The notes below the pieces were generated by a model, which ran no database searches, was not told where the DNA came from, and worked only from the letters and a program-made list of their open reading frames with translations. DNA of 63,656 nucleotides, the filler included, from Tortispora ganteri (taxonomy: Eukaryota): assembly GCA_003707115.1 (NCBI GenBank). It is 14 parts of 14 records of this genome, joined end to end, with 100 filler letters (N's around TTAATTAATTAA, not from the genome) between each part and the next. Parts side by side here need not be neighbours in the genome. Positions count along the whole stretch, not along the records: positions 1 to 5,050 come from PPNB01000069.1; 13 more parts are not named here. One strand, written 5' to 3'. Positions 340 through 62,362 of this stretch are shown in pieces (position 1 is the stretch's first letter; each line of letters opens with the position of its first letter). Made by a program: the position numbers and the translations under genes.

Positions 340-3300
340 CTAGATATTAGAGTTGAAATAAATGTAAACCGTGGCCCTGCTTTCACCGTAGTACACAAAT
401 CGCAACGGCGTCCACCCCTCCGACAATGACTGATCAATAGACCAAACGGCCCTTGACCCCAATGCGTGCACGAGTTTCCATCCACCGCTTCCGATTGCCT
501 CTATGTCCCCGCACCTCATCCCGCTTTCCCCAACAAACATATACGCTAAGTAGTTAGAGAGCCCACCGACATCCATAATCACGTTCGGTCCCTGAACATA
601 TACCAGCACCTCTGTCACTTCATTCGAATTATAGTAGCGGATACGTAGATAATTCGAAACAATATTCACGACAACCTCGCTGGAGTTCCCTACCCGATAA
701 TCTCCATTGGCCACCTGCGTTTCAGTATACTCCGTAAGATTCACCGTCCACTCCCGCCCCAGCAGCGTCTGCGACGGTTCGCACTTGCAAGCGTTTGACA
801 CCACTCCACAGCTGCTGCTACTCGAGGCGCTAGAACTCCACTGAGCTGAGCTGGATACGCTCGAACTGACACTCGAACTGGGACTGGAACTCAAACTAGA
901 ACTCAGACTAGAAATAGAACTAGAAACAGAACTAGAAACAGAACTCAAACTAGAACTCAAACTAGAACTAGAACTGCTTAACACCAATGAAGATCCCACA
1001 ATTCCAGACGAAGAAACTGTCAATCTGCTAGAGTTGCCCGTCGATGTCGGCAAGACGCTTGAGTTGCTGTAGATCGATGTCGGCAAGACGCTCGAGTTCC
1101 TGAAAGTCGAAGTTGCCAAGGCGCTCGAATTGCCAGACGATGTTGGTAAGACACTCGAGTTGCTGTAGATCGATGATGGCAATACACTCGAGTTACTATA
1201 GATTGATGTTGATAACACACTCGAGTTGCTGTAGATCGAAGATGGTAAGACACTCGAGTTGCTGTATATCGATGTTGGCAAGGCACTCGAGTTGCTATAG
1301 ATCGATGATGGCAATACACTCGAGTTACTATAGATCGATGATGGCAATACACTCGAGTTACTATAGATCGATGATGGCAAAGCACTCGAGTTGCTAAGGA
1401 CCGAGGTTGGCAAGACGCTCGAGTTGCCTGACGAATTTGGTAAGACACTCGAGTTGCTGTAGATCGAAGTTGATAACACACTCGAGTTGCTATAGATCGA
1501 CGATGGCAAGGCACTCGAGTTGCTGAAAATCGATGATGGCAAGGCGCTCGAGTTGCTATAGATCGACGATGGCAAGGCGCTCGAGTTGCTATAAATCGAT
1601 GATGGTAAGGCACTCGAGTTACTATAGATCGACGATGGCAAGGCGCTCGAGTTGCTATAAATCGATGATGGTAAGGCACTCGAGTTGCTGTAGATCGACG
1701 ATGGCAAGGCGCTCGAGTTGCTATAGATCGAAGTTTTTAAGACACTCGAGTTGCTATAAATCGATGATGGTAAGGCGCTCGAGTTGCTATAGATCGAAGT
1801 TGTTAAGACACTCGAGTTGCTATAAATCGATGATGGTAAGGCACTCGAGTTGCTATAGATCGAAGATGGTAACGCACTCGAGTTGCTGTATGTCGATGAT
1901 GACAAGGCGCTCGAGTTACTATAGATCGACGTCGGTAAAGCACTCGAGTTGCTGTACATCGATGTTGGTAAGACGCTTGAGTTGCTGTAGATCGAAGTTG
2001 ATAACACGCTTGAGTTGCTATAGATCGATGTTGTTAAGACACTCGAGTTGCTATAGATCGATGTCGGCAAGAGACTCGAGTTGCTGTAGATCGATGTTGG
2101 CAAAGCACTCGAGTTGCTGTACATCGACGTCGGTAAGGCGCTCGAGTTGCTGTACATCGACGTAGGCAAGGCGCTCGAGTTGCTGTACATCGACGTAGGC
2201 AAGGCGCTCGAGTTGCTAAACACCGATGAAGAAAACAGAATACTTGAGACGTCAGACGAAGTAACCGGTATAGCACTTGAATTGCTGTAGACTGAAGTCG
2301 GTAAGATGCTCCAGTTGCTTAATACCGATGAAGCTGGCACAACACTTGAATTGCTGATGATCATCGAAGACGCAAGAACGCTCGAGCTAGCAACTGAACT
2401 ACTTGGCAACATGCTTGAATTACCAAATGCAGAAGTTGACACGACAGCACTCGAGAAGCTTATGAAAGAGGTCGACACCACACTTGAGTTGCTGGTTATT
2501 GCAGAAGATGCCAAACCACTCGAGGGACTAGGTGACAAACTTTGACCGGCACTCGAGTTAGGCAACATCGAAGACAGAGATCCGGCACTAGATATTCCAG
2601 CACTTGACAAAGGCGTCAAACCACTAGAACTGCCTATAGTTGATGAAGAAAATAAAACGCTTGACAAACCTATAATCGATGAAGAGGGAAAAACACTAGA
2701 ATCAGAAAAGGCGCTTGATCCATGAGCAAAACTCGATTCAGAAACAATATGACCAGTGCTGGAATTACCATATGAGCTCCAGCCAATACTAGAACTTAGT
2801 GCATCACTTGAAGCAGTAGAAATAACTGAGCTGGATGTAACACTAGAACTTGCAGTCAAACTCCAAGATCCGGGGCCTACTGATGAGCCTGATACAACAC
2901 TAGAGCCGGGTACAGCCGAAGATCCTGACGCAGCTGAAGATCCTGATACAACACTAGAGCTGGGTACAGCTGAAGATCCTGACGCAGCCGAAGATCCTGA
3001 TACAACACTGGAGCTGGGTGCAGCTGAAGATCCTGACGCAGCCGAAAATCCTGATACAACACTGGAGCGGGGTGCAGCTGAAGATCCTGACGCAGCCGAA
3101 GATCCTGATACAGTACTAGAGCTGGGTACAGCTGAGGATCCTGATACAACACTAGAGCTGGATGCAGCTGAGGATCCTGACGCAGCCGAAGATCCTGATA
3201 CAACACTAGAGCTGGGTACAGCTGATGATCCTGACGCGGCCGAAGATCCTGATAAAACACGAGAGCCGGGTGCAGCCGAAGATCCTGATACAGTCGAAGA

Positions 3301-5050
3301 TCCTGATAAAACACTAGAGCCGGGTGCAGCTGAGGATCCTGATGCAACTGAGGAGCTAGAGGCTGCTGAGGATCCGGCTGCTGCACTTGAGGCAAAAGAG
3401 AGTTGACTAGTGCTAGAATTTCCATATGAGCTCCGTCCAAAACTGGATTTCAGTGCAGTGCTAGAGGCAGATGGAATTGCTGGAGAAGATAATGTAGTTG
3501 AAACGGAAGTCACGCTAGAGCTTGAGGCGGGACTCGAGCCCGATTCGGTAGAAGAGCTGGGGGAAGCTGAAGATCCCGAGCCGATGCTAGAGTCGGAAGA
3601 TGCAGACGACCCGGAAGCGATAGAGGATCTAGATGCAATTGAGCTAGCAGCAACTAAAGAACTGGAAACAATAGCAGATCCTGAGGCAACTGATGAGCTA
3701 GCAGCAACTGATGAGCTAGCAGCAACTGAGCTAGCAGCAACTGAGCTAGCAGCAACTGAGCTAGCAGCAACTGAGCTAGGTGCAATTGAAGAGCTAAAAA
3801 CAACCGATGAGCTAGGTGCAATTGAAGAGCTAAAAACAACCGATGAGCTAGCAGCAGCTGAGCTAGGTGCAATTGGAGAGCTAAAAACAACTGATGAGCT
3901 AGGTGCAATTGAAGAGCTAAAAACAACTGATGAGCTAGCAGCAACTGATGAGCTAGAAACAACTGAGCTAGGTGCAATTGAAGAGCTAGAAACAACAGAA
4001 GACTCCGGAAAAACACTAGATTCCAATATAATCGATAAGGCTGAACTAACTGAAGAAATAGGATTAACCGGCTCAGGTGATCCACTTGTGGATGCAGACA
4101 CAGATATGGATATTGTCTCGCCACTAGTAGTAGTGAACACAATACTCACGATCACGGAAACCCCAGCTTGACGCTTAAATTGACCCGCCGATCCAAAGCC
4201 CGCAACTGGAATGACTATACGGATTGGGTACAAGAACCCACCGGCAAAGTCGACGGAAAAACTTGCTTTGAACCCATTCGAACTGTCCAGAGGGGCAGTG
4301 GCAGAAGAGCCAGAAGAACCAATAAGGTCCATGTTATCGCACCGCATAGCCAATTCGCCATCAAAGAGGTACGCGTAAGTATCTGCAAAGTTACTAGGAT
4401 CCTGTGCCTGTACATCTACAAACGCAACGTCGGCTGATGGTTCAAGGTAGAAAAGGTACTCGAAATAGCCCTGTTCGGATACCAATGCCGATATAGACTT
4501 TGACGAGACTGTAGCGCCCACATTGTCTCGCTGGTAGTTCCTGTACTCCCCGTTCTGGATATCGCTCGACGACAAGTCTACTGCGCCTTCATATATAGCG
4601 GCAAATACTTCGCCTGAGCTGTAAGCAGGTGTAGTTGAGCATGCGTCTGCAGGCACTGTCGTGTGGGCTGTCGTTGGAACAGTTACTGCAGCTGTAGTGG
4701 GTGGCGTAGCGGGGTGCGTAGGCGGAGGCGTAGGTGCTATAGTCTCCGTGATAATAGCTGGAATCTCAATAGAAACGTGCACGTCAACCAACACGGACAT
4801 AGACACGGACTCGTAGTATGACCAGACATAGGTGCAGTCGTCTTTGACGAGCGGCGGACTAGGTACATAGGTCACCGTAGCGGGTGTGCATTGGTTGCAG
4901 TACCAGCCTGAAACTGTAGACACATAAGGCGCGCATTGGTCGTCGTAGACAGTCGCACGTGTAGTACCAGACTCAGAAGTATACAAACGTCCGTAGACAG
5001 TAGAAGTTTCAACAGGTGGGCTGCAAATGAGCGTGTTCGTTTCCACGATA
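340..5050 (-). CDS. Adhesin/flocculin-like family member A1 (long stalk): Cys-rich N-domain, PA14/GLEYA-like domain, Ser-rich and NSS-repeat stalk, C-terminal PA14/GLEYA-like domain; 5' end cut by contig edge and continued in 29947..30176
   Basis: 1568-aa open frame. Motifs AYLFDGELAMRC...GGFLYPIRIV and AYMFVGESGMRC...GWTPLRFVYY resemble the PA14/GLEYA strands of Flo/Epa adhesins (LSVGG..AFECC; YYP(M/I)(K/R)IVY). Ends FNSNI* with no hydrophobic GPI tail. Confidence 0.8.
1030..2220 (-). repeat. 30-bp coding minisatellite, (S-I/M-Y-S-N-S-S-A/V-L-P-T/S)-type 10-aa unit, roughly 40 copies, each with an N-S-S sequon
   Basis: Recurring ctcgagttgctgtagatcga every 30 nt. Confidence 0.95.
2880..3400 (-). 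repeat. 18-bp-based coding minisatellite (SGSSAA / PSSSVV units)
   Basis: Recurring gaagatcctga; same repeat type at 10287-10800. Confidence 0.9.
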
Positions 5051-5766: not shown

Positions 5767-7794
5767 CTAGATGGGAGATTCGAACAAAATTCTAATCGTT
5801 CCAGTGCTGTGACTGTAGAACACAAATCGCAACGGCGTCCACCCCGTCGATAATGGCCCATTAATCTGCCAGTCGGTGAATGAAATGTGCTGCTGCATGG
5901 CTTTCCATCCACCGCTTCCGATTGCCTCTATGTCTCCGCACCTCATCCCGCTTTCCCCAACGAACAGATACCCCAAATCTAGGGCGGATAATGAGACCAT
6001 GTTTATCTGGCTCGGTCCGCGAAAATATATCAGCACCTCCAACACTGGATCGTTCTTACCTTCAAGTTCATACGTAATGAATGAAGGATTAAATTGAATT
6101 GACACATCAACCTTTCTGGAGTTCCCCACCCTGTACTTCCCTTCCGCTATATCCGTTTCATTGTACTGCCCAATATCCACCGCCCACTGTCGCGCCAGCA
6201 CCGTCTGCGACGGTTCGCACTGGCAAGCGTTTGACACCACTCCGTAGCTGCTGCTTGTCGAGTCGCAAGAAATCCATTGAGCTGAGCTGGATATTCTCCC
6301 ACCAACACTCGAACTGACACTCAAACTAGAACTAGAACTAGAACTAGAACTAGAACTAGAACTAGAACTAGAACTAGAACTAGAACTAGAACTAGAACTA
6401 GAACTAGAACTAGAACTAGAACTAGAACTAGAACTAGAACTAGATCTCAAACTAGAACTAGAACTAGACCTTGAACTAGAACTAGAACTAGAACTAGAAC
6501 TAGAACTAGATCTCAAACTAGAACTAGAACTAGACCTTGAACTGGTGCTGGCGCTGGCGCTGGCACTCGAACTGTCACTCAGATTCCTTAATACCGTTGA
6601 AGATTCGGATACAACGGACGATTCTGGCCCAACTGAGCTAGCCGCAACTGATGTCCTTGGACTAACTGACCTGGCCGCAACGGACGAACCTGATACAATC
6701 GATGACCCAGAGCCAGTTGACGATCCCGGAAAAATACTGGATTGAGATATAATCGATAAGGCTGAACTAACTGAAGGAATAGGATTAACCGGCTCAGGTG
6801 ATCCACTTGTAGAGCCATATACTGAAATAGCTATTGTCTCGCCGCTGATGGTAGTGAACATGACACTCACTGTCACAGAGACTCCGCCCTGCCGCTTGAC
6901 TCGACCAGCCGATCCAAAGCCCGCAACAGGAATGACTATACGGACTGGGTACAAATATCCACCAGCAAAGTCGACCGGAAAACTAGCTCTGAACCCATTC
7001 GAACTGTCCAGGTGAGCAGTTCCAGAAGTCCCAGAAGTACCAATAAGGTCCATGTTACCGCACTGCATTGCCAATTCACCGTCGTACAGGTACGCGTAAG
7101 TATCTGCAAAGTTACTAGGATCATGCGCCTGTACATCTACAAACGCAACGTCGGCTGATGGTTCAAGGTAAAACAGGTACTCGACATAGCCCTGTTCGGA
7201 TACCGATGCCGATATGGAGTTTGACGAGACTGTCGCGGCCACATTGTCTCGCTGGTAGTTCCTGTATTCACCGTTCTGGATATCGCTCGACGAGAAGTCT
7301 ACCGCGCCCTCGTATATAGCGGCAAATACTTTGCCTGAGCTGTAAGCAGGTGTAGTTGAGCATGCGTTTGCAGGCTCTGTCGTGCGGGCTGTCGTTGGAA
7401 CAGTTACTGTAGCTGTGGTGGGTGGCGTAGCGGGGTGCGTAGGCGGAGGCGTAGGTGCTATAGTCTCCGTGATAATGACTGGAATCTCAATGGAAACGTG
7501 CACGTCAACCGACACGGACATAGATACAGACTCGTAGTATGACCAGACGTAGGTGCAGTCGTCTTTGACGAGCGGCGGACTAGGTACATAGGTCACCGTA
7601 GCGGGTGTGCATTGGTTGCAGTACCAGCCTGAAATTGTAGACACATGAGGCGCGCATTGGTCATCGTAGACGGTCGCACGTGTAGCAGCAGACTCAGAAG
7701 TGTACAGGCGCCCGTAGACAGTAGAAGTCTCAACAGGTGGGCTGCAAACGAGCGTGTTCGTTTCTACAATAGTACTGTATACTGTATGCACCAT
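5767..7794 (-). CDS. Adhesin-like family member A2 (complete, short poly-Ser stalk)
   Basis: ATG at 7794 (gccATGG context, MVHTVYSTIV...); both PA14-like domains present; ends FESPI*. Confidence 0.8.
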   Translation of the reverse strand: MVHTVYSTIVETNTLVCSPPVETSTVYGRLYTSESAATRATVYDDQCAPHVSTISGWYCNQCTPATVTYVPSPPLVKDDCTYVWSYYESVSMSVSVDVHVSIEIPVIITETIAPTPPPTHPATPPTTATVTVPTTARTTEPANACSTTPAYSSGKVFAAIYEGAVDFSSSDIQNGEYRNYQRDNVAATVSSNSISASVSEQGYVEYLFYLEPSADVAFVDVQAHDPSNFADTYAYLYDGELAMQCGNMDLIGTSGTSGTAHLDSSNGFRASFPVDFAGGYLYPVRIVIPVAGFGSAGRVKRQGGVSVTVSVMFTTISGETIAISVYGSTSGSPEPVNPIPSVSSALSIISQSSIFPGSSTGSGSSIVSGSSVAARSVSPRTSVAASSVGPESSVVSESSTVLRNLSDSSSASASASTSSRSSSSSSLRSSSSSSSSSSSSSRSSSSSSLRSSSSSSSSSSSSSSSSSSSSSSSSSSSSSSSSSSSSSSSSLSVSSSVGGRISSSAQWISCDSTSSSYGVVSNACQCEPSQTVLARQWAVDIGQYNETDIAEGKYRVGNSRKVDVSIQFNPSFITYELEGKNDPVLEVLIYFRGPSQINMVSLSALDLGYLFVGESGMRCGDIEAIGSGGWKAMQQHISFTDWQINGPLSTGWTPLRFVFYSHSTGTIRILFESPI
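6320..6545 (-). repeat. (AGTTCT)n hexamer microsatellite encoding poly-Ser
   Basis: (gaacta)n on + strand; also at 14750-14995 and 40100-40620. Confidence 0.97.
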
Positions 7795-10083: not shown

Positions 10084-10186
<103 letters not shown>

Positions 10187-10286: not shown

Positions 10287-12388
10287 GATCCTGACGCAGC
10301 AGAAGATCCTGATACAACACTAGAGCTGGGTGCAGCTGAAGATCCTGACGCAGCTGAAGATCCTGATACAGTCGAAGATCCTGATAAAACACTAGATCCG
10401 GGTGCAGCCGAAGATCCTGACGCAGCTGAAGATCCTGATACAACACTGGAGCTGGGTGCAGCTGAAGATCCTGACGCAGCCGAAGATCCTGATACAACAC
10501 TAGAGCCGGGTACAGCCGAGGATCCTGACGCAGCTGAAGATCCTGATACAACACTAGAGCTGGGTGCAGCTGAGGATGCTGACGCAGCCGAAGATCCTGA
10601 TACAACACTAGAGCTGGGTGCAGCTGAAGATCCTGACGCAGCTAAAGATCCTGATACAGTCGAAGATCCTGATAAAACACTAGATCCGGGTGCAACCGAA
10701 GATCCTGACGCAGCCGAAGATCCTGATAAAACACTAGAGCCGGGAGCAGCTGAGGATCCTGATGCAACTGAGGAGCTAGAGACAGCTGAGGATCCGGCTC
10801 CTGCACTTGAGGCAGAAGAGAGTTGACTAGTGCTAGAATTTCCATATGAGCTCCGTCCAAAACTAGATTTCAGTGCAGTGCTAGAGGCAGATGGACTTAT
10901 TGGAGAAGACAATGTAGTTGGAACAGAAGTCACGCTAGAACTTGAGGTGATACTCGATCCTGGTGCGGCAGAAGAGCTGGGGGAAGCTAAAGATTCCAAG
11001 CTAACGCTAGAATCAGAAACGGTAGATGACCCAGAGGCGATAGAGGATCCCGATGCAATGGAGCTAGGTGCAACCGATGACTCGGAGGCAACAGAACTGG
11101 GTGTAACAGAGGATCCTGAGGCAATGGAGCTAGGCGCAACTGATGACTCGGAGGCAACAGAGGATCCTGATGCAACGGAGCTAGGCACAACTGATGACTC
11201 GGAAGCGAGCGAGCTAGGTACAACTGACGACTCGGAGGTGACCGAGCTAGGCGCAACTGAAGATTCTGAGGCAACGGAGCTAGGTGCAATTGACGACTCG
11301 GAGGCAATGGAGCTAGGAGCAACTGAGGATCCCGAAAAAACACTGGATACAGATAGAATCGATAATGTAGAAGTCAATGAAGGAATAGGGTTAACCGGCT
11401 CAGGTGATGCACTTGTAGATGCAAATACAGAGAAGGTTATAATCTCGCCGCTACTAGTAGTAAACACGATAGTCACGGTTACGGACACTCCGGCTTGACG
11501 CTTGAATCGAGACGCCGATCCAAAGGCCGCAACAGGAATGACTATACGGATTGGGTACAAGTACCCACCGGCAAAGTCGACGGAAAAACTAGCTCTGAAG
11601 CCATTTGAACTAGCCAGAGGCGCAGTGGCAGAAGAGCCAGAAGAGCCAATAAGGTCTATGTTATCGCACCTCATGGCCAGTTCGCCGTCGAAGAGGTACG
11701 CGTAAGTATCTGCAAAGTTACTAGGATCCTGTACTTGTACATCTACAAATGTGATGTCGCCTGAGGGTTCAAGGTAAAACAGGTACTCGACGTAGCCCTG
11801 TTTGGATACGGATGCCGATATAGATTTTGACGAGACAGCGGCGTCGATATTATCTTGCTGGTAGTTCCTGTAGTCACCGTTCTGGATATCGCTGGGCAAC
11901 AAGTCTACTGCACCCTCGTATATAGCGGCAAATACTTCGCCTGAGATGTAGGAAGGTGCGGTAGAGCATGCGTCTGCTGGCACAGTAGTGGGCACAGTCG
12001 TAGGGACAGTCGCGGTAGCTGTAGCGGGGTGAGTAGGCGCAGGCGTAGGCGCTATAGTCTCTGTGATAATGACTGGAATCTCAATGGAGACGTGCACGTC
12101 AACCGATACGGACATAGACACGGACTCGTAGTATGACCAAACGTAGGTGCAGTCGTCTTTGACAAGAGGCGGACTAGGTATATAGGTCACCGTAGCGGGT
12201 ATGCACTGGTTGCAGTACCAGCCTGAAACCGTAGACACGTGGGGCGCACATTGGTCGTCGTAGACGGTCGCACGTGTAGCAGCAGACTCAGAAGTATACA
12301 AGCGTCCGTAGACAGTAGAAGTTTCAACAGGTGGGCTGCAAATGAGCGTGTTCGTTTCCACGATAGTACTGTATATTGTCTGCACCAT
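10287..12388 (-). CDS. Adhesin-like family member A3, 5' part (3' truncated by contig edge)
   Basis: MVQTIYSTIV... start, PA14-like domain, SRFKRQ, Ser-rich stalk shared with A1. Confidence 0.8.
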
Positions 12389-14195: not shown

Positions 14196-15196
14196 CTAGA
14201 TATTAGAGTCGAAACGAATGTCAGTCCAGCCCTGTTGTTCACCGTAGAACACAAATCGCAACGGCGTCCACCCCTCCGACAATGGCAGATCAGTAAACCA
14301 AATGGGCTCTGAGTCGAATGAGTGCACGAATTTCCATCCACCACTTCCGATTGCCTCTATGTCCCCGCACCTCATCCCGCTTTCCCCAACAAACATATAC
14401 CCTAAGTAGATAATGATCCCCTCGACATATATTATCCGGTTCGGTCCCTGAACATATACCAGCACCTCCGTCACTGCTTTGAAATTATTGTAGTAGATAT
14501 TTAGAAGATTCCCAAAAATGTTCACGTCAACCTCTCTGGAATTCCCCACCCGGTACTTCCCATCGGCTACCTCCGTTTTATTGTACTCCCTAAGGTGCAC
14601 CGCCCACCTTCTTGCCAGCAGCCTCTGTGAAGGTTCGCACTTGCAAGCATTGGACACCACTCCACAGCTGCTCCTACTCGAGGCGCTAGAACTCCACTGA
14701 GCTGAGCTGGATACGCTCGAACTCACACTCAAACTGGGACTTGAACTGGAACTCAAACTAGAACTAGAACTAGACCTAGAACTAGAACTCAAACTAGAAC
14801 TCAAACTAGAACTCAAACTAGAACTCAAACTAGAACTAGAACTAGAACTAGAACTAGAACTAGAACTAGAACTTGAACTCGAATTCAAACTCAAACTCAA
14901 AGTAGAACTCAGACTAGAACTCAAAGTAGAACTCAGACTAGAACTGGAACTAGAACTCAAACTAGAACTCAAACTCGAACTAGAACTAGAACTGGCGCTG
15001 GCGCTGGCACTCGAACTGACACTCGGATTCCTATCCTCGCCTGCTGACACCCCTAGTACCAAAGATACCCCTGCAAGTCCCACCACCACCTCACCATCTC
15101 GCTTCCGCCTCTCTGGTACAACAACAACACGTACAGGCGTCCACCCAGACACCGCCCTGTTCACCGTTTCCCCGTAAACCGTTCCACCACTACCGA
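14196..15196 (-). CDS. Adhesin-like family member (subfamily B), 3' part: end of a GWTPVRV..KRD domain, poly-Ser, C-terminal PA14-like domain
   Basis: Open frame to contig edge; C-domain aligned with A1; same orientation as A3, 1.8 kb upstream of it. Confidence 0.78.
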
Positions 15197-15296: not shown

Positions 15297-16938
15297 CGGA
15301 GGCCGATGCACTGATAACCTCAGAAGATGGCGCAGGTGACGCTGACTCGGAGGCCGATGCACTGAGGACCTCAGAAGAAGGAGCAGCTGAAGCTGACTCG
15401 GAGGTCGACGCACTGAGGACCTCAGAAGAAGGAGCAGGTGACGCTGACTCGGAGGCCGATGCACTGAGAACCTCAGAAGAAGGAGAAGGAGAAGCCGAGG
15501 CCGACGCACTGAGAACCTCAGAAGAAGGAGCAGGTGACGCTGACTCGGAGACCGACGCACTGAGAACCTCAGAAGATGGCGCAGGTGACGCTGACTCGGA
15601 GGCCGATGCACTGATAACCTCAGAAGATGGCGCAGGTGACGCTGACGCTGAAGCCGAGGCAGAGGCACTGGCAACTTCCGATGACGACACAATAACGGAG
15701 GAGATGATCGGATGAACACTAGACAAGATATCAGATGATGAGGCGATCAAAGATGATAACGAGCTGTTCGAGTATACTGCCCGTGATGAATAATATGAGG
15801 GCGCAGATGAAGGTATGTCGGGTAAAATCGAACTGCTTACAGAGCTGACTGTGGCAGTGATTTCAGTGCTATGCTGCAAATCTGAGGAATGAGTGCTGGT
15901 AGAGGAAAAAGGTTGACTTGAAAGCAGTAGAGACGAAATCGCAAGAGAGGTGGCGGTCTGAATTGGAGAGGAGGTTATGAGGTTGCCACTAGGAGACAAG
16001 TCGACAGCTGAGATTTCTATATAGCCGTTATCGTTTGATGGTACTGGAAATACGACTATCCATTTAGAATCAGACATTGATCGAGATTCTGCGAGTGCGG
16101 TGGCGACAGTAGAAGTAACAACTACTATGCGGACTGGGTACCATGTTTCCTGAAGGCCAATGAACGACTGGTCTTCGGTGTAGCCATTCTCTGCAGAAAG
16201 AGACGCTATGTCAGAAAATTGGACGTCGCTGAGACTAGGCAGCGGCATACACTCGACGAGGTGTGGGCCGATGAAGAGGTAAGCTTGAGCGACTGTACCT
16301 GCGGGTGGCGAAGAAAGCGAGAGTCTGAGAGCGGTGATTTCAGCGGCGTTCATACGAAGGTAAACGAAAAGCTCAGTGACACCATAATTAGGGCCAGCTG
16401 CAGCGTAAGAGTGTTCATCATGTTGAGTGTCAACCAACGCATAAGATCCTGTGCGGTATGTGGCATCAGCGATCTGCTGGGGAGACCAATCTGCTGAGTC
16501 TGGGTACCATGTTGCAGCGATAGAGTTTACCGGGGAAAACGTGTAGCAAGAAGACTGTGCGAGAGTTACAGATGTTGAAGGAGTTCCAGGCGTAGAAATA
16601 TCGGCTGGTGATGATGTAGGGACAATGACAGGGTAGCGGTAAGTGATATCACCAGTGACTGAGACATGGACAGATATGTCCTCGTAGACGCTATAAACAT
16701 AAGTGTTAGAATTAATAACAAATGGAGGTTTTGGTACATAGGAGACTACAGTTGAGGTGCACTCGAAACAGTAGACATTATCGGTGTAGGTAGTGTGTGG
16801 ACGGCAATAGTCATCATAAGCGGTGACAATACCTGTAGCTGAGGTAAACCCTTGGGAGTAGAGTGTAGTAGTAGCTAGTGGGGGCGGTGTGCATATGAGT
16901 GTCTCGAGCTCGGTGACGGTGCTCCAAACGGTATGCAT
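15297..16938 (-). CDS. Divergent adhesin-like family member, 5' part; 60-bp SASASESASPAPSSEVL-type repeats
   Basis: MHTVWSTVTELETLICTPP... homologous to the family N-domain; AYLFIGPHLVEC and TWYPVRIV motifs. Confidence 0.72.
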
Positions 16939-20258: not shown

Positions 20259-20916
20259 GGTAAAACAGGTACTCGACGTAGCCTTGTTCGGAAACTGATG
20301 CCGATATAGAGTTTGACGAGACAGTGGCGGCCACGTCGTCTCGCTGGTAGTTCCTGTAGTCACCGTTCTGGATATCGCTGGACGACAAGTCTACTGCGCC
20401 CTCGTATATAGCGGCAAATGCTTGGCCTGCGTTGTAGGCAGGTGCGGTTGAGCATGCGTCTGCAGGGACAGTCGTAGGGACAGTCGTAGGGACAGTCGTA
20501 GGGACAGTCGTAGGGACAGTCGTAGGGACAGTCGTAGGAACAGTCGCGGTAGCTGTAGCCGGGTGAGTAGGCGGAGGCGCTATAGTCTCCGTGATAATGA
20601 CTGGAATCTCAATGGAGACGTGCACGTCAACCGATACAGACATAGACACGGATTCGTAGTATGACCAAACGTAGGTACAGTCGTCTTTGACGAGAGGCGG
20701 ACTAGGTACATAGGTCACCGTAGCGGGTGTGCACTGGTTGCAGTACCAGCCTGAAACTGTAGACACATAAGGCGCGCATTGGTCGTCGTAAACGGTCGCA
20801 TGTGTAGCAGCAGACTCAGAAGTGTATAAGCGTCCGTAGACAGTAGAAGTTTCAACAGGTGGGCTGCAAATGAGCGTGTTCGTTTCCACGATAGTACTGT
20901 ATATTGTCTGCACCAT
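20259..20916 (-). CDS. Adhesin-like family member, 5' fragment (version 1), divergent from the JEN gene
   Basis: MVQTIYSTIV...; 12-bp TVPT repeat expanded at ~20465-20540. Confidence 0.78.
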
Positions 20917-23833: not shown

Positions 23834-24089
23834 GAGCTTTGGTAGAGTATTTAGTTTATTGTGTGGGTTTATCTCTTTAATATTGTAATTTCCTAAGTTG
23901 ATTATTGTGTCCATTGCAATATATTGATGTTAGCAGGAAAGGAACAGCACATTTCATACAGTGTCCGTTCCTATTCAAAACAGTAGAAAATATGTTGTTT
24001 ACTACATTTAAATATAGCAGAATATCCATCAGAATTCACTGCAACAATTTGTATAGATAGACCAGGAGATTGCTCATGAACCACATTGA

Positions 24090-25135: not shown

Positions 25136-25715
25136 CGGAAACTGATGCCGATATAGAGTTTGACGAGACAGTGGCGGCCACGTCGTCTCGCTGGTAGTTC
25201 CTGTAGTCACCGTTCTGGATATCGCTGGACGACAAGTCTACTGCGCCCTCGTATATAGCGGCAAATGCTTGGCCTGCGCTGTAGGCAGGTGCGGTTGAGC
25301 ATGCATCTGCAGGCACAGTAGTGGGCACAGTCGTAGGGACAGTCGCGGTAGCTGTAGCCGGGTGAGTAGGCGGAGGAGCTATAGTCTCCGTGATAATGAC
25401 TGGAATCTCAATGGAGACGTGCACGTCAACCGACACGGACATAGACACGGACTCGTAGTATGACCAAACGTAGGTACAGTCGTCTTTGACGAGAGGCGGA
25501 CTAGGTACATAGGTCACCGTAGCGGGTGTGCACTGGTTGCAGTACCAGCCTGAAACCGTAGACACATAAGGCGCGCATTGGTCGTCGTAGACGGTCGCAT
25601 GTGTAGCAGCAGACTCAGAAGTATACAAACGTCCGTAGACAGTAGAAGTTTCAACAGGTGGGCTGCAAATGAGCGTGTTCGTTTCCACGATAGTACTGTA
25701 TATTGTCTGCACCAT
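25136..25715 (-). CDS. Adhesin-like family member, 5' fragment (version 2)
   Basis: Near-identical to 20259..20916 with fewer TVPT repeats. Confidence 0.78.
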
Positions 25716-29946: not shown

Positions 29947-30176
29947 GGCGCGCATTGGTCGTCGTAGACAGTCGCACGTGTAGTACCAGACTCAGAAGTA
30001 TACAAACGTCCGTAGACAGTAGAAGTTTCAACAGGTGGGCTGCAAATGAGCGTGTTCGTTTCCACGATAGTACTGTATATTGTCTGTACCATAGAGAGCG
30101 ATTGATGGCAAGAAGCCGCGCTTGCGCTTATTATAGCTGCTAGCAGAAACCATAATAAACTTGTTGCCGTCTTCAA
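29947..30176 (-). CDS. 5' end of family member A1; ATG at 30092, preceded in frame by a TTG-led 28-aa signal-peptide-like leader
   Basis: 29947..30069 is identical to 4928..5050 (123 nt); leader LKTATSLLWFLLAAIISASAASCHQSLS. Confidence 0.7.
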
Positions 30177-32235: not shown

Positions 32236-33543
32236 CTAGATGGGGTCGAAGAAATCAATATAAATACTGGTAGCCTCCTTACTGTGGATCACCAATCGCA
32301 ACGTTGTCCATTCATAACTCAATCTCCTACCTATATCGTAGACTGCACAGCAGCCAGCGTACGAATATCCTCATATTCCGCTTTCACTTGCCTACATGTT
32401 CCTGACATCATCCCCCTTTTCCCCGATACACATATCCTGATCCTATGTACACACCTGTCGCTGAAGAGACAGATATATAATGCTCTGTCCGGAAATATAC
32501 TTTAGCACCTTGATCGCTGCATCTGTGTCAAGTTGAATTTTATGGATTTATAACGAACATTCCCGGGAAGTTCTACGGAGCTCCCTACGGAGTACTCCCA
32601 TCGGCTACCTGCGTATCACTGTACTGAGTAAGACTTACCCGCCAAATTTGCGCAAGCAACGTCTGCGACGGTTTGTATTGGCAGGCGTACTCTACCACCC
32701 TGCTACTGGCGCTGCTCGAGAGTGTAAAATTCGACTGAACCAAGCTGAACGCTGAAAGCAAGACTCGAACTGGAACTAGCACTAGCACTGGCACTGGCAC
32801 TGGCGCTCGAACATGAACTGTACCTGACACACTCGAACTCCTATCTTCGGCAGCCAATAGTCCCAGCAAGTCAGACCACTACGTCACCATCTCGCTTGCG
32901 GTTGATCAGCCCAAAAACACGCACAGACGTCCACCCAGACACCGCAGTAAACTGCCGGCCCGTCCCGATCACACGACTTCCTCGAGGAATACATCTACAA
33001 ATCCACCCCTGATTTCCGTGATCGCGCCGTCCCCATGTAGACATCACGTCGATCAGTCCCACCCCCCTCTACAGCAATCCCATCGGCTGTCACTTTTGCA
33101 CCAAGAGCCATTTTTGGGCCAGCCATTTACCCACTCGCCGCAATTGCCTCAAAATTACCGTTAAACGCGTCGTAGCCCATCACATACAGGCTTTCGCTGT
33201 ACTGCGGTCGGAAAGCGCACACAGACAGGGTGCTGCCCGTCGACGCTGATACTACTGACTCTCCTGGCACCTCGACCCACAAACTGCCGCTAACAATGAA
33301 TGACGCGCTGACTTCCTCGTAATAGCCCATGGGTGGTGGTTTTCGACCGCCACGCGGGGCGTAGCTTATCGTCGCTGCCAGGCACTGCTGCCTGTACCTG
33401 CCGATGACCGTTGCAACGGCCGCGCATCACGTGCTGTCATAGACAGTTGCCTTGCCCCACTAACTCGCAAATCCCCCGATGACTGTCGTCATTTCCACCA
33501 GCTGATCGCAAAGAAACGTGTTAAATCCTGTCACTACGTGCAT
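32236..33543 (-). pseudogene. Full-length pseudogene of adhesin-like subfamily B
   Basis: MHVVTGFNTFLCDQLVEMTTVIGGFAS*WGKATVYDST*CAAV..., YYEEVSASF, SGWTSVRV..NRKRDGDVVV*, ACQYKPSQTLLA, ends FFDPI*; multiple stops and frameshifts. Confidence 0.8.
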
Positions 33544-34275: not shown

Positions 34276-34618
34276 CTAGGAGGGAGGGAACACTGGGTTT
34301 CCGGAAAATCTGATGTGATAATAACCACTTTTTGAGGAATATAAAACCAGCCGTAAAGGTGTGTAGCCATTATGCAGCTCTTTGTATACGTTCAATGAGC
34401 TGGCAGCATAAGAGCTAACACTCCATCCCTCGTTCCCAATGGTCGAGATACTGTCACATGCCATTGCGCTGTCGCCACCGAATATATATCCATCGAATTT
34501 TCGGCCAAGACTGGTTGATGAACCAGACGACGTATAAAAAACTTGTACGATTTCGTTTGCCACACCAGTAAAATCAATGCCTTTCACGTAAAGCAACACC
34601 TCCAGCGTTACTGAGGCA
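34276..34618 (-). CDS. 3' end (C-terminal PA14-like domain) of a divergent family member
   Basis: EVLLYVKG...GYIFGGDSAMACDSISTIGNEGW...NGYTPLRLVLY matches the family C-domain scaffold. Confidence 0.75.
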
Positions 34619-34718: not shown

Positions 34719-37026
34719 CTGAGCCAGATGAAACTGAGCCAGATGAAACTGAGCCAGATGACGCTGAGCCAGATGACGCTGAGTTAAACGACGCTGAGCC
34801 AGATGACGCTGAGCCAGATGACGCTGAGCCAGATGACGCTGAGCCAGATGACGCTGAGCCAGATGACGCTGAGTTAGACGACGCTGAGCCAGATGACGCT
34901 GAGTTAGACGACGCTGAGTTAGACGACGCTGAGCCAGACGACACTGAGCCAGACGACACTGAGCCAGACGAGGTAGAGCCAGAAGACAACGATCCAGATG
35001 ACAACGATCCAGATGACAACGATCCAGATGACAACGATCCAGATGACAACGATCCAGATGACGCTGAGCCAGACGAAGCTAAGCCAGATGAGGCAGAGCC
35101 AGACGCTAACGATCCAGACGATAAAGATCCAGAAGACACTGAGCCAGACGAGGTAGAGCCAGAAGACAACGATCCAGATGACAACGATCCAGATGACGCC
35201 GATCCAGATGATAACGATCCAGATGATAACGATCCAGACAATAACGATCCAGACGATAATGATCCAGAAGACAATGAGCCAGACGATGTTGACACAGATG
35301 AAGCTGAGCCAGACAATAACGATCCAGACGATGCCGATCCAGAAGATAACGAGCCAGACGACGCCAACGAGCCAGAAGGTACCGATCCAGACGCTGCCGA
35401 TCCAGACGATGCCGATCCAGACGAGGCAGAGCCAGATGACGCTGAGTTAAACGACGCTGAGCCAGATGACGCTGAGCCAGACGAAGCTAAGCCAGACGAG
35501 GCAGAGCCAGACAACGCTGAATTAGACGACGCTGAGCCAGATAACACAGAGCCAGACGATGAGACTGCAGACGAGGCAAAACCAGACGACGTTGAGTTAG
35601 ACGACGCTGAGCCAGAAGACGCTGAGCCAGACGATGACATTACAGACGAGGTAGAGCCAGATGATGCTGAGTTAGACGACGCTGAGTTAGACGACGCTGA
35701 GTTAGACGACGCTGAGTTAGACGACGCTGAGTTAGACGACGCTGAGCCAGACAACGCTGAGCTAGAAGACAATGAGCTAGAAGACAATGATCCAGACGAG
35801 GCAGAGCCAGATGACGCTGAGTTAAACGACGCTGAGCCAGATGACGCTGAGCCAGATGACGCTGATTCAGATGACGCTGAGCCAGATGACGCTGAGCCAG
35901 ATGACGCAGATTCAGACGAGGCAGACTCAGATGAGGCAGAACCAGACGATAACGATCCAGATGAGGCAAAGCCAGACGATAACGATCCAGATGAAGCAGA
36001 GCCAGATGAAGCAGAGCCAGAAGAGACAGAGCCAGAGGATGCTGAGCCAGAGGATGCTGAACCAGAGGATGCTGAACCAGAGGATGCTGAACCAGAGGAT
36101 GACGCTGAATTAGACGACGCTGAGTTAGACGACGCAGAGCCAGAGGATGACGCTGAGTTAGACGACGCTGAATTAGACGACGCTGAATTAGACGACGCTG
36201 ATTCAGACGAGGCAGATCCAGACGAGGCAGAGCCAGAGGACGACGCTGAACCAGACGAGGCAGAGCCAGACGATGACATTACAGACGACGCTGAGCCAAA
36301 AGCAGAATTAGAACGTGTTGCAGAGCTGAAGCCAAAGCTAGACATATATTCGTCAGATAAGGAAGAACCCGACTGAGTAGGCGTAGAGTTAGCCGAAGCA
36401 GACGAAAGAGTTGTGTCAGCTGAAGTTGTAGTTATTAAAGACGAAGCAGACCTAATCTCTGACGATAAAATCGAAGTAGGCAGAGAAGTGATCGTACGTG
36501 ATCCGGCTGCCGGAGGCAGCAGTGTTCCGGAAGGAGGAATTGTAGTTGTTATTATCACGGGTACTTCAATAGAGATATCTATATCTATCCTTATTGATAT
36601 AGATACTTCCTCATAGTAAGACCAGACATAGGTACAGTCATTAGTGACTAGAGGAGGAGAAGGAATACAGGATATAACAGTAGGAACGCACTGATTGCAA
36701 TACCAACCTGTTGGGATAGTTTGATAGGGTGAGCATGAGTGATCATAAGCAGTTACCGGTGTAGCTTCAGGGACACCGCCTGCACCACCTGCAGTACCAC
36801 CAGAAAAGACATTAGTGTATCCGAAATCATTTGGATTTCCAGAGTCAGAGGTGTATCCACGTCCATAGACTGTCGTGGTAGTGACAACAGGAGGCTCGCA
36901 GACCAGGGTCTGCCACTCGGTGACGGTGCTCCATACGACGTTCTGCTGCTCTGGAATGGCAAGAGCTGCGGGATCTGCAGCCGGATGGGCTGCGCGCGCA
37001 GCGAGTGCATTCCACAAGTGAGGCAT
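34719..37026 (-). CDS. Divergent family member, 5' part: Cys-rich N-domain followed directly by a 15-bp (SSGSA/SSNSA) repeat stalk
   Basis: VVWSTVTEWQTLVCEPP...GWYCNQCVPTVISCIPSPPLVTNDCTYVWSYYEEVS; no first PA14-like domain seen. Confidence 0.75.
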
Positions 37027-39465: not shown

Positions 39466-39501
<36 letters not shown>

Positions 39502-39550: not shown

Positions 39551-41635
39551 CTAGATATTAGAGTCGAAAAGAATGTTAAAAGAGCCCCGGGATCCACTGT
39601 AGAACACAAATCGCAACGGCGTCCACCCCTCCGACAATGACAGACCAATAATCCAATAGTCCCTTGACCCCAATGCGTGCACGAGTTTCCGTCCACCGCT
39701 TCCGATTGCCTCTATGTCCCCGCACCTCATCCCGCTTTCCCCAACAAACATATACGCTAAGTAGGGGGAAGCGGGCCCATAGACAGTATTTATCCCGTTC
39801 GGTCCCTGAACATATACCAGCACCTCCGTCACTGCATTGAAATTATAGTATTTGATATCTAGAAAATTCCCAAAAATGTTCACGTCAACCTCTCTGAAAT
39901 TCCCCACCCGGTACTTCCCATCGGCTATCTCCGTTTCAGTATACTTCGTAAGATTCACCGCCCACTCTCGCGCCAGCAGCGTCTGCGACGGTTCGCACTG
40001 GCAAGCATTGGACACGACTCCGCAGCTGCTGCTACTCGAGGCGCTAGAACTCCACTGAGCTGAGCTGGATACGCTCGAACTGACACTCGAACTGGGACTT
40101 GAACTTGAACTCGAACTTGAACTCGAACTCAAACTAGAACTCAAACTAGAACTAGAACTAGAACTCAAACTAGAACTAGAACTAGAACTCAAACTAGAAC
40201 TAGAACTAGAACTAGAACTAGAACTAGAACTAGAACTAGAACTAGAACTCAAACTAGAACTAGAACTAGAACTAGAACTAGAACTAGAACTAGAACTAGA
40301 ACTAGAACTCAAACTCAAACTAGGACTAGAAATTGAACTAGAACTAGAACTAGAACTAGAACTAGAACTAGAACTAGAACTCAAACTCAAACTAGGACTA
40401 GAAATTGAACTAGAACTAGAACTAGAACTAGAACTAGAACTAGAACTAGAACTAGAACTAGAACTGGAGCTAGCACTAGAACTAGAACTCAAACTAGAAC
40501 TCAAACTAGAACTCAAACTGGAGCTAGAACTAGAACTGGAGCTAGCACTAGAACTAGAACTAAAACTAGAACTCAAACTAGAACTCAAACTAGAACTAGA
40601 ACTAGGACTCAGACTAGAACTAGGATCAACTGGCTCTGGTGATCCACTTGCAGAACCATAAACTGAAATAGTTATTGTCTCGCCGCTGATCGTAGTGAAC
40701 ATCACACTCACAGTCACAATGACTCCAGACTGACGCTTGAATTGACCCGCCGATCCCAAGCCCGCAACAGGAATCACTATACGAATTGGGAACAAATATC
40801 CACCGTCAAAGTCCACCGGAAAACTTGCCTTGAACCCATTCGAACTGTCCAGAGGGGCTGTCCCAGAAGTCCCAGAAGTACCAATAAGCTCCATGTTATC
40901 GCACCGCATGGCCAATTCACCCTCGTACACGTACGCATAAGTATCTGCAAAGTTACTAGCATCCTTTGCCTCTACATCTACAAACCCAACGTCGCCTGAT
41001 GGTTCAACGTAAAACAAGTACTCAAAATAGCCCTGTTCCGATACTGATGCCAATATAGAGTTTGACGAAACTCTCCCGGTCACATTGTCTCGTTGGTAGT
41101 TCCTGTACTCACCGTTCTGGATATCGCTCGACAACAAGTCTACCGCACCCTCGAATATAGCGGCAAATACTTCGCCTGCCCTGTAGGCAGGTCTGGTTGA
41201 GCATGCGTCTGCAGGCACTGTCGTGTGGGCTGTCGTTGGAACAGTTACTGTAGCTGTGGTGGGTGGCGTAGCGGGGTGCGTAGGCGGACGCGGAGGTGCT
41301 ATAGTCTCCGTGATAATGACTGGAATCTCAATAGAAACGTGCACGTCAACCGACACCGACATAGACACGGACTCGTAGTATGACCAGACGTAGGTGCAGT
41401 CGTCTTTGACGAGCGGCGGACTAGGTACATAAGTCACCGTAGCGGGTGTGCATTGGTTGCAGTACCAGCCTGAAACTGTAGACACATAAGGCGCGCATTG
41501 GTCGTCGTAGACAGTCGCACGTGTAGTACCAGACTCAAAAGTATACAAACGTCCGTAGACAGTAGAAGTTTCAACAGGTGGGCTGCAAATGAGCGTGTTC
41601 GTTTCCACGATAGTACTGTATATTGTCTGTACCAT
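39551..41635 (-). CDS. Adhesin-like family member A4 (complete, poly-Ser stalk)
   Basis: 694-aa ORF from ATG (MVQTIYSTIV) to FDSNI*; both PA14-like domains present. Confidence 0.82.
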   Translation of the reverse strand: MVQTIYSTIVETNTLICSPPVETSTVYGRLYTFESGTTRATVYDDQCAPYVSTVSGWYCNQCTPATVTYVPSPPLVKDDCTYVWSYYESVSMSVSVDVHVSIEIPVIITETIAPPRPPTHPATPPTTATVTVPTTAHTTVPADACSTRPAYRAGEVFAAIFEGAVDLLSSDIQNGEYRNYQRDNVTGRVSSNSILASVSEQGYFEYLFYVEPSGDVGFVDVEAKDASNFADTYAYVYEGELAMRCDNMELIGTSGTSGTAPLDSSNGFKASFPVDFDGGYLFPIRIVIPVAGLGSAGQFKRQSGVIVTVSVMFTTISGETITISVYGSASGSPEPVDPSSSLSPSSSSSLSSSLSSSFSSSSSASSSSSSSSSLSSSLSSSLSSSSSASSSSSSSSSSSSSSSSSSSSSSISSPSLSLSSSSSSSSSSSSSSSSISSPSLSLSSSSSSSSSSSSSSSSSSSLSSSSSSSSSSSSSSSSSSSLSSSSSSSLSSSSSSSLSSSLSSSSSSSSSSSPSSSVSSSVSSSAQWSSSASSSSSCGVVSNACQCEPSQTLLAREWAVNLTKYTETEIADGKYRVGNFREVDVNIFGNFLDIKYYNFNAVTEVLVYVQGPNGINTVYGPASPYLAYMFVGESGMRCGDIEAIGSGGRKLVHALGSRDYWIIGLSLSEGWTPLRFVFYSGSRGSFNILFDSNI

Positions 41636-43502: not shown

Positions 43503-44066
43503 CTAGATGTTAGAGTTGAAATAAGTGACAATAAAGTTGGCGTATTGACTGTAGAACACAAATCGCAACGGCGTCCACCCCTCCGACAATGACCGATCAA
43601 TATCCCACTTGAGGTCTGACTCGAATGGGTGCACCACTTTCCATCCACCGCTTCCGATTGCCTCTATGTCCCCGCATCTCATCCCGCTTTCCCCAGCAAA
43701 CATATACCCTGAGTAGGAGAAACGGTACATCACAGAGACATACCTAATCACGTTCGGTCCTTGAACATACACCAGCACCTCTGCCACTTCATTTGGATCA
43801 TTGTAGAGGATACCTACACGATCCGTATTAATACCGACGATAACCTCTCTGGAATTCCCCACCCGGTACTTCCCATCGGCTACCTCCGTTTCAGTATACT
43901 CCGTAAGATTCACCGCCCACCTTCTTGCCAGCAGCCTCTGTGAAGGTTCGCACTTGCAAGCGTTTGACACCACTCCACAGCTGCTGCTACTCGAGGCGCT
44001 AGAACTCCACTGAGCTGAGCTGGATACGCTCGAACTGACACTCGAACTGGGACTTGAACTTGAACT
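43503..44066 (-). CDS. Adhesin-like family member A5, 3' part (C-terminal domain)
   Basis: Open to contig edge; tandem upstream neighbour of A4. Confidence 0.78.
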   Translation of the reverse strand, partial: SSSSSPSSSVSSSVSSSAQWSSSASSSSSCGVVSNACKCEPSQRLLARRWAVNLTEYTETEVADGKYRVGNSREVIVGINTDRVGILYNDPNEVAEVLVYVQGPNVIRYVSVMYRFSYSGYMFAGESGMRCGDIEAIGSGGWKVVHPFESDLKWDIDRSLSEGWTPLRFVFYSQYANFIVTYFNSNI

Positions 44067-44168
44067 NNNNNNNNNNNNNNNNNNNNNNNNNNNNNNNNNN
44101 NNNNNNNNNNTTAATTAATTAANNNNNNNNNNNNNNNNNNNNNNNNNNNNNNNNNNNNNNNNNNNNTG

Positions 44169-57514: not shown

Positions 57515-57517
57515 TGA

Positions 57518-62260: not shown

Positions 62261-62362
62261 NNNNNNNNNNNNNNNNNNNNNNNNNNNNNNNNNNNNNNNN
62301 NNNNTTAATTAATTAANNNNNNNNNNNNNNNNNNNNNNNNNNNNNNNNNNNNNNNNNNNNGT

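Follow-up and report, generated by a model that had tools for sequence, protein, structure and literature searches.

The stretch of DNA analysed here (63,656 nucleotides; hereafter the window) comes from the yeast Tortispora ganteri (GenBank assembly GCA_003707115.1) and carries a multigene family whose proteins end in a hypervariable C-terminal domain (C-domain) predicted to adopt the PA14/GLEYA fold. The window is composed of 14 contig parts joined via 13 artificial 100-nt spacers (44 N, a 12-nt stop linker and 44 N); open reading frames that cross a spacer are artefacts, and adjoining parts are not genomic neighbours. The 13 whole parts stand in descending order of size, from 5050 to 4427 nt, as would be expected of small unplaced contigs sorted by size. 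In full-length genes, a 110-aa N-terminal domain (N-domain) is followed by a Pro/Thr linker, a second domain of the same predicted fold (domain 1), a Ser-rich stalk and the C-domain, which forms the end of the protein. Domain 1, upstream in each gene, is a distant homologue of the C-domain (independent E-value [iE] 1e-10 to 8e-8). The family members and the joins are as follows, with the strand in parentheses.

340..819 (-): gene 1, C-terminal domain of predicted PA14/GLEYA fold; the protein ends directly after its last strand, with no glycosylphosphatidylinositol (GPI) signal
820..4116 (-): gene 1, Ser-rich stalk; a 33-nt (11-aa) repeat occurs ~36 times at 1041-2218, and the protein has 48 N-glycosylation sequons
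4117..4653 (-): gene 1, domain 1 (second predicted PA14/GLEYA-fold domain), under purifying selection; Lys-Arg (KR) at ~4171-4176 in the loop equivalent to calcium-binding loop 2 (CBL2)
4744..5046 (-): gene 1, N-terminal four-cysteine beta-rich domain, truncated at its start by the contig end; nothing in Pfam or the PDB matches it
5767..7794 (-): complete A-type gene with N-domain, domain 1, poly-Ser stalk and C-domain (5770-6255)
10287..12388 (-): A-type gene, 5' part, 1.8 kb downstream of the gene ending at 14196 in a head-to-tail tandem
14196..15196 (-): family gene, 3' part, with a domain 1 tail of the type of Tortispora caseinolytica protein P0019, a short stalk and a C-domain (14199-14675)
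15297..16938 (-): divergent B-type member, 5' part, with N-domain, domain 1 without KR, and Ser-rich stalk
20259..20916 (-): A-type gene, 5' part, divergently oriented to a JEN1-like transporter gene; near-duplicate at 25136-25715
25136..25715 (-): A-type gene, 5' part, allele or recent duplicate of the gene at 20916
29947..30092 (-): A-type gene, 5' end, downstream of a decayed copy
~32245..33543 (-): decayed family member with stops and frameshifts, readable in three frames only
34276..34618 (-): eighth C-domain (34279-34617), divergent and partial, at a contig end (iE 4.4e-15)
34719..37026 (-): C-type member, 5' part; the N-domain is followed by a long stalk of SSGSA type, and the part present lacks a domain 1
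39551..41635 (-): complete A-type gene encoding 694 aa; the gene ending at 43503 lies 1.9 kb upstream
43503..44066 (-): C-domain and stalk end of the upstream tandem neighbour
44167..46583 (+): member with 11-aa repeat stalk, 3' part; C-domain 46095-46580
48764..51127 (+): allele or recent duplicate of the gene ending at 46583; flank 0.7% different, C-domain 7.4% different, nearly all of it amino-acid changing
Joins: artificial spacers starting at 5051, 10187, 15197, 20159, 25036, 29847, 34619, 39366, 44067, 48664, 53207, 57734 and 62261

The initial annotation had described seven C-domains as a fixed scaffold with four hypervariable windows, and this description holds. The seven are present at the stops at 340, 5767, 14196, 39551 and 43503 (-) and at 46583 and 51127 (+); all seven reading frames are open, and identity to the first copy ranges from 47 to 75%. 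Every position of the motifs AC.CEPSQ, G.YRVGN, E.L.Y..G, Y...GE..M.C.D.E.IGSGG and GWTPLR.V.Y is an invariant column in the seven-sequence alignment, and the strings said to follow PLR.V.Y were recovered exactly (GESRATVYIYF, SHSTGTIRILF, GEQQGWTDIRF, SGSRGSFNILF, SQYANFIVTYF, SETMKDFRLSF and PERMEYFSLSF). The N-terminal ~110 aa, reported as near-invariant, are 93-96% identical among the four A-type copies aligned. The variable windows, which include indels, are given below for the copy at 340, whose residue numbering is used throughout.

619..672 (-): patch 1 (residues 50-67), a strand hairpin with alternating variable positions, and the loop before the GLEYA-equivalent strand
553..582 (-): patch 2 (residues 80-89), a strand and the loop equivalent to calcium-binding loop 1 (CBL1); the slot of the paired aspartates (DD) reads NY here
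427..474 (-): patch 3 (residues 116-131), a loop at the presumed L3 position and the next strand
349..387 (-): patch 4 (residues 145-157), the CBL2-equivalent loop, in which the Asn slot is Gly, and the last strand

Because the hypervariable columns of the five A-type copies (46 of 152) capture 19 of the 25 differences between the held-out pair 46583/51127 (P 2.7e-7), the patch pattern is more than chance. Counting the eighth, partial C-domain, one genome carries at least eight different tips.

Strong positive selection drives the variation of the tips. Using a self-written codon model (GY94-type, F3x4), comparison of models M1a and M2a over the seven C-domains gave a likelihood-ratio test (LRT) statistic of 170, with an omega2 of 12.4 on 23% of 149 codons and 27 sites at posterior > 0.9, all of them inside the patches. 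The statistic was 127 when multi-nucleotide changes were allowed, 93 when columns within five of a gap were removed, and 55 with both; for the four closest copies it was 85 and 75. None of 40 neutral simulations with conversion-like tracts reached the observed 85 (maximum LRT 32.9). By way of comparison, domain 1 (4 sequences) and the N-domain (6 sequences) each returned an LRT of 0.0, and their pairwise ratios of nonsynonymous to synonymous substitution (dN/dS) were 0.18-0.34 and 0-0.23, respectively. Patch-only pairwise dN/dS values (up to 5.9) were set aside as circular.

The genes ending at 46583 and 51127 show the same signal in a single comparison. They differ at 34 of 462 nt in the domain and at 15 of 2079 in the flank (P 2.5e-15), and 26 of the 28 changed codons are non-synonymous; over the 152 alignment columns the two domains show 25 differences. 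In a public run each tip version has a contig of its own, with 0 differences over 209 nt for one and 21 for the other; their depths there are 45.5 and 47.8 against flanks near 87. Contig depth is not copy number, and these values only hint at alleles or a two-copy duplicate. The stretch is present in two of the six public runs listed, neither of them an RNA run, and the contigs and depths are so nearly identical that the runs look like one data set, which may be the source of the window and does not represent a second strain. A paralogue pair in T. caseinolytica follows the same gradient more weakly, with 3 differences in 108 positions of the N-domain, 10 in 176 of domain 1 and 22 in 186 of the C-domain.

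A model of the C-domain (from seven sequences) is a beta-sandwich with a predicted local distance difference test (pLDDT) score of 71.5 and a predicted template modelling score (pTM) of 0.70. Foldseek placed Epa A domains (Epa1A, Epa6A and variants) at all of ranks 1-11 (E 5.5e-5 to 2.9e-4), and VIA-align over 48,161 chains placed Cea1A first (Z 8.8, root-mean-square deviation [rmsd] 3.2, 134 residues aligned), with Flo5A at Z 7.9. The domain 1 model is of higher confidence, and its top VIA-align match is Flo5A (Z 10.5, rmsd 4.3, 165 aligned), followed by Cea1A (9.1) and Epa6A (8.9); its Foldseek list opens with a poor phage-fibre match (rmsd 34) and continues with Epa domains. Cea1 is also the sole PDB sequence match of a 21-domain profile (E 0.075), and the Pfam GLEYA model (PF10528) matches 6 of the 21 domains weakly (best E 0.0023). 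Taking the Foldseek and VIA-align results, the Cea1 match and the weak GLEYA scores together, we regard the predicted PA14/GLEYA fold of both domains as established, as had been anticipated when modelling and structure search were proposed as the check. A profile of the seven C-domains alone found nothing meaningful among PDB sequences (one DARPin at E 1.7). The ESM Atlas gave no usable match for the C-domain or the N-domain, an outcome that indicates neither absence nor novelty, and prediction of a C-domain homodimer scored 0.00 in two runs in which the alignment was not used and the domain's own fold was uncertain, a score that speaks neither for nor against a dimer.

The fold and the loop positions are those of the lectin adhesins; the metal site is not. 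In Cea1 the calcium ligands are D191-D192 and N257, according to a passage in PMC6218569. In the profile alignment with Cea1, the DD falls 8 and 7 residues before an invariant Gly, at the end of patch 2, and the CBL2 Asn falls 7 residues after an invariant Pro, at the start of patch 4, in agreement with the proposal that these patches are the CBL1 and CBL2 equivalents. No DcisD was found at or near the aligned slot in any of the 21 domains, four domain-1 copies keeping a single Asp (DT), and the calcium-binding Asn is missing from its aligned slot in all 21. In the seven tips the DD slot reads NY, LD, IY, PY, SY, DY and GY and the Asn slot G, S, G, S, S, S and P; few columns vary as much as the first DD position (N, L, I, P, S, D, G). 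Because both elements are absent throughout, calcium-dependent glycan binding by the tips is unlikely, and the mechanism of Epa/Flo glycan specificity that had been carried over to this family is not supported. By sequence and predicted fold, the tips are PA14-fold proteins outside the calcium-dependent lectin adhesins.

Of the 27 selected sites, 16 fall on predicted strands and 11 in loops. Selected residues occupy 15 of the 32 positions on five strands (50-54, 57-62, 80-86, 125-131 and 149-155), whereas the remaining six strands have 1 in 40; since the strands were grouped with the entropy profile already in view, the associated P of 5.6e-6 is descriptive. On the five strands, the selected residues mostly alternate with conserved hydrophobic positions, and Leu, Tyr, Phe, Val and Ile account for 56 of the 189 residues at selected sites. 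Both short helical regions and one strand set stay conserved. By the PA14 topology, the five strands probably form one sheet and the six the other. The selected sites thus likely lie on one exposed sheet face of the modelled domain, continuous with the CBL loops, and the variable surface is likely larger than a disaccharide pocket. With 16 of the selected sites on strands and 11 in loops, a description as CDR-like loops is too narrow.

Tandem duplication and copy decay are seen directly. Within two contigs, the 3' end of one gene lies 1.8-1.9 kb upstream of the start of the next, head to tail, and on a third contig a partial gene, a decayed copy and the start of another gene follow one another; the word array applies to these real tandems inside some contigs and not to the whole window, which is a set of joined contigs. 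A (TC)n microsatellite ends two contigs (10088-10186; 39466-39498), and since both ends have the flanks expected of a family 3' region, the genes ending at 43503, 39551 and 5767 may stand three in a row. Contigs 20259-25035 and 25136-29846, at 96.7% identity, represent haplotypes or a recent duplication; on both, a JEN1-like transporter gene and an A-type gene are divergently oriented. Gene conversion among copies receives modest support. The four closest copies differ by 11-48% in their patches, yet the scaffold DNA between the patches is near-identical (e.g. 0-1 differences in 39 nt), and neighbouring informative sites agree with one another beyond chance (permutation P 0.007-0.055 over six settings). 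The gene at 14196-15196 joins the P0019-type domain 1 tail to a C-domain most like those of A-type copies, a hybrid that is a sign of exchange between subfamilies.

Diversity-generating retroelements (DGRs) also place variable residues on a fixed scaffold at a protein C-terminus, and their targets carry adenine-specific substitutions. Here, adenine is not favoured when the columns of the four copies are sorted by their consensus base and the variable ones counted (A 18/38, C 16/33, G 24/39, T 29/61), indels are present, no template repeat was noticed in the window, and the only reverse transcriptases are those of Ty1/copia elements on other contigs. Patch changes fall at codon positions 1, 2 and 3 in 143, 139 and 64 cases, and the spectrum of the pair 46583/51127 is AG 9, CT 7, AT 6, CG 5, AC 4 and GT 3. 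Given the lack of adenine bias and the excess at codon positions 1 and 2, we rejected a DGR or targeted hypermutation; the changes are those of ordinary mutation that selection has sifted.

When 1.84 billion cluster representatives were searched with a profile, 16 matches were returned, of which 8 are true relatives (P0001-5, P0007, P0009 and P0010), all hypothetical proteins of T. caseinolytica. The others (P0006, P0008, P0011-16) were dropped as ankyrin-type or other repeat proteins matching a short GWTPL-like stretch. Three word-index searches added only T. caseinolytica proteins (P0019, P0020, P0025); of the six matches in one of these searches two were kept, P0021 being dropped as low-complexity and P0022-24 on 0-4% coverage. 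The closest relative is P0019, which shares the layout and is 46% identical in the C-domain. P0001 and P0002 carry three to five tandem PA14-like domain copies with Ser/Thr/Gly-rich spacers between them, and the copies of P0002 differ, by eye, in the same windows.

The N-domain has four invariant cysteines in 110 aa, no notable Pfam match and no PDB sequence match, and within a longer protein it is modelled at low confidence (pLDDT 32-69). A search of metagenome contigs with its profile gave 46 pattern matches, none of which was confirmed. The domain (41306-41635 (-) and equivalents) also heads Ser-rich proteins in which no domain 1 was detected, namely the window gene at 37026, P0020 and P0025. 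It is a movable module, known so far from this yeast lineage alone and always without an evident signal peptide. In domain 1, a KR, which we take to be a Kex2-like site with putative cleavage, occurs in the loop after the P.R strand; 5 of the 6 copies in the window and 7 of the 8 from T. caseinolytica have it. It stands at 4171-4176 (-) and equivalents, often as KRQ or KRD, and is missing from the C-domains and the B-type gene. The loop is modelled at pLDDT < 50 just before the last strand of domain 1, and in the model cleavage would probably leave both halves joined by that strand.

Among known proteins, the Epa A domains of Candida glabrata (GLEYA PF10528) and the A domains of Flo1, Flo5 and Lg-Flo1 share with this family the PA14/GLEYA sandwich, a Ser/Thr-rich stalk and organisation as paralogues with a conserved core, a variable surface and a variable CBL2. 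They differ in an N-terminal domain position, a signal peptide, a GPI anchor and calcium-held glycan binding via DcisD and Asn, whereas the proteins of the window family have two PA14 domains, the variable one at the C-terminus, and lack the DD and Asn, a GPI signal and an evident signal peptide. The relevant part of PMC6308950 describes Epa domains as a conserved core with a highly variable surface, specificity residues in CBL2 and DD-N as the invariable core of the pocket, and a passage in PMC6218569 gives long Ser-rich stalks, repeats and a terminal PA14 domain as the layout of a surface adhesin. Cea1 (KpFlo1) of Komagataella is both the best structural match and the only PDB sequence match of the C-domain family, and its paralogues KpFlo4a-f, likewise without DcisD and Asn, are a precedent for calcium-less GLEYA domains. 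Unlike the proteins of this family, Cea1 and KpFlo4 are counted as GPI-wall adhesins whose A domain is N-terminal, and the KpFlo4 domains are set apart by their description as lacking cysteines, which this family conserves.

C-terminal GLEYA domains without a GPI signal are a described arrangement, as far as the relevant passages of PMC6308950 and PMC8621652 go, and adhesins of this kind (Linder and Gustafsson 2008, as cited in passages of PMC6308950 and PMC6218569) have repeats and an unexplained attachment. With its C-terminal GLEYA-type domain, repeats and lack of GPI, the window family matches that description. Those adhesins are described with a typical signal peptide, none being evident after the conserved Met in the window family, and their fission-yeast/filamentous-fungal cluster keeps DcisD; a four-cysteine N-domain and a second PA14 domain do not appear in the passages describing them. 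The myxobacterial TraA, likened here by description, has a PA14-like domain that is polymorphic through substitutions and indels while the rest of the stalked protein is conserved, and a proposed non-lectin recognition (PMC3820747, in part); it is bacterial, is encoded by a single locus, has its variable domain at the N-terminus and acts with TraB in outer-membrane exchange. Flo11 of Saccharomyces cerevisiae is a yeast surface protein with a positively selected interacting domain (PMC6834051, in part), unlike here with a fibronectin type III-like fold, a GPI-type layout and between-strain variation at one locus. Each ingredient thus has a precedent, in variable Epa surfaces, calcium-less KpFlo4, C-terminal GPI-less GLEYA proteins and selected adhesin tips. 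Their combination (a PA14 pair under opposite selection, a calcium-less C-terminal tip varied on strands as well as loops, an unclassified four-cysteine N-domain and no evident signal peptide) was not found in literature searches of an incomplete library; the papers listed in two of these searches do not contain the name Tortispora.

We favour, with a probability of about 0.55, the reading that the genes encode a wall-associated, stalked, calcium-independent, GPI-less family of recognition proteins whose tips track a changing biological partner. The lineage-restricted family combines the four-cysteine N-domain, the conserved PA14-fold domain 1, a Ser-rich stalk predicted to be glycosylated and the hypervariable PA14-fold tip, and may amount to a repertoire whose copies differ in binding specificity. 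The N-terminal half would hold the protein at the cell surface and the stalk would lift the C-terminal domain outward, where the tip, lacking the calcium site in the alignment, may bind through the CBL1, L3 and CBL2 loops and one exposed sheet face. The partner would be a varying biological surface, more probably a protein or complex glycoconjugate than a simple disaccharide, and might belong to other microbes, to insect vectors or to plant tissue. The diversity itself arises through duplication in tandem, a degree of gene conversion, point changes fixed by positive selection, and decay of copies, and needs no dedicated mutator.

Several observations weigh against this reading. Among the window genes and T. 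caseinolytica models that were scored, none has a signal peptide after the conserved Met, and a search upstream of the genes revealed neither a conserved splice signal nor a signal exon, which leaves export unexplained. The missing signal peptide conflicts with the secretory hallmarks of the family, namely the Ser-rich stalk, sequons, conserved Cys and KR. Although the stalks are 25-35% Ser and three members with the 11-aa repeat have 48-55 sequons, two stalks have only 2. With respect to fold, the confidence of the C-domain model is moderate, its Z-scores of 8.8 and 7.9 barely exceed those of unrelated sugar-binding sandwiches (8.2, 8.1), and all GLEYA scores are below the Pfam gathering cut-off of 26.2 bits, the best of the seven C-domains reaching 15.1 bits (E 0.028). 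The single sheet face was deduced from the general PA14 topology rather than from coordinates. Whole-domain pairwise dN/dS for the C-domain is 0.75-2.45 and significant in none of 11 pairs, so that the signal needs site models, and in simulations conversion-like tracts by themselves often raised the LRT to 8-33, so that omega and the nominal P values are overstated. Finally, escape and self-recognition would leave the same signature, and sequence alone cannot separate them from the favoured reading.

With regard to export, the start Met lies 15-16 residues before the first Cys in seven window genes and 11-16 in eight of nine T. caseinolytica N-domain models. A missed upstream exon is possible. 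A hydrophobic stretch just upstream of A-type genes is in frame in one of six, out of frame in four and degenerate in one, with no Met and no conserved branch site; a 25-nt intron joining it in four copies was rejected as too short and not conserved. By hydropathy and eye, the hydrophobic tail of a GPI signal is missing from all eight C-termini, and no segment of transmembrane strength is present in the family proteins scored.

A bolder account, in which the PA14 scaffold has become a calcium-free protein-binding receptor using the sheet face and the lectin loops, with an arms-race repertoire, leaderless export and anchoring via the N-domain, and Kex2 cleavage in domain 1, strikes us as rather unlikely as a whole. 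Homotypic self or kin recognition, by which each tip would bind identical tips on neighbouring cells in analogy to TraA and Flo11, appears unlikely. PA14-like domains can decide self-recognition through a proposed homophilic, non-glycan binding (PMC3820747, in part), the interacting regions of Flo11 are positively selected (PMC6834051, in part), a broad calcium-free variable surface would suit protein-protein contact, and two very different tips sit within near-identical flanks. TraA and FLO11, however, are single loci that vary between strains, and at least eight tips in one genome would blur an identity tag. Of similarly low likelihood is escape, whereby the outermost tip would vary to avoid killer toxins, predators, mycoparasites or insect defence proteins and its own binding would be minor or constant. 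Selection over a wide exposed surface rather than a pocket, CBL slots without a conserved binding residue, a sheltered domain 1 without positive selection and the life of cactophilic yeasts in a cactus-yeast-Drosophila system (PMC11449361, in part) all fit such a role, whereas the conserved strand set and helical regions mean that the outside is not all variable, hydrophobic and aromatic residues are common at the selected sites, a trait of binding surfaces, and no silent-cassette or expression-site layout was seen in this fragmented assembly.

It is very improbable that the proteins are classical Epa/Flo calcium-dependent lectins with CBL1 and CBL2 setting glycan specificity: fold, loop positions and the division into conserved core and variable surface, likewise described for Epa domains (PMC6308950, in part), agree with this, but the DD-N signature is absent from every domain and the first DD position is among the most variable. 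Slightly worse placed, and very doubtful, is the idea that adhesin is the wrong frame, the proteins being not exported or being released, for example as Kex2-processed secreted targeting or antagonistic proteins. The lack of a signal peptide, transmembrane helix and GPI signal would accord with it, as would a start Met 11-16 residues before the first Cys in eight of nine T. caseinolytica models and a KR in both species that could free the stalk-tip part. It is opposed by the surface-adhesin layout of stalk, sequon-rich repeats and terminal PA14 domain (PMC6218569, in part), by the modelled position of the KR, which probably keeps the halves joined, and by a Pfam scan that found no catalytic or toxin-like domain. 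A non-adaptive origin of the patches through relaxed constraint, gene conversion, misalignment or assembly error, prompted by the fragmented assembly, indels near patches, the modest recombination signal and the inflation of the test by simulated conversion, is already largely refuted by a signal that survives gap-near column removal and multi-hit models and exceeds 40 of 40 simulations, by the codon-position skew and open frames, and by the recovery of both tip versions of the pair 46583/51127 as separate public-run contigs.

Fungal PA14/GLEYA adhesins are understood as calcium-dependent, small-pocket lectins; the favoured reading of wall-associated recognition proteins suggests that the fold can drop the metal and diversify a larger surface. 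Strong selection on the tip in a yeast not known as a pathogen would imply an unrecognised biological conflict or recognition system. Most Tortispora species are almost exclusively cactus-associated and belong to a cactus-yeast-Drosophila system (PMC11449361, in part), and the main text of the main cactus-yeast genomics paper uses neither "adhesin" nor "adhesion". The family also provides a natural tolerant scaffold in the form of at least eight variants and a near-isogenic pair, and its conserved N-domain is a concrete candidate for the wall attachment of GPI-less C-terminal GLEYA proteins. The general pattern of expanded yeast adhesin families with selected tips is already known.

A Pfam scan identified as other genes in the window a PRP19-like gene, two transporters that we presume to be JEN1-like (Pfam itself gives Sugar_tr/MFS) and two Ty1/copia elements. 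The PRP19-like gene (18185-19699 (+)) has a very divergent WD40 part and adjoins the B-type family member. The Ty1/copia elements (53307-57733 and 57834-62260) are 98.8% identical, with single open gag-pol frames cut at the contig ends, and a dN/dS of 0.12 between them suggests recent activity. At 62361-63656, a 15-nt repeat array resembles the stalk of the gene at 37026 and is probably another family stalk, cut by the window end.

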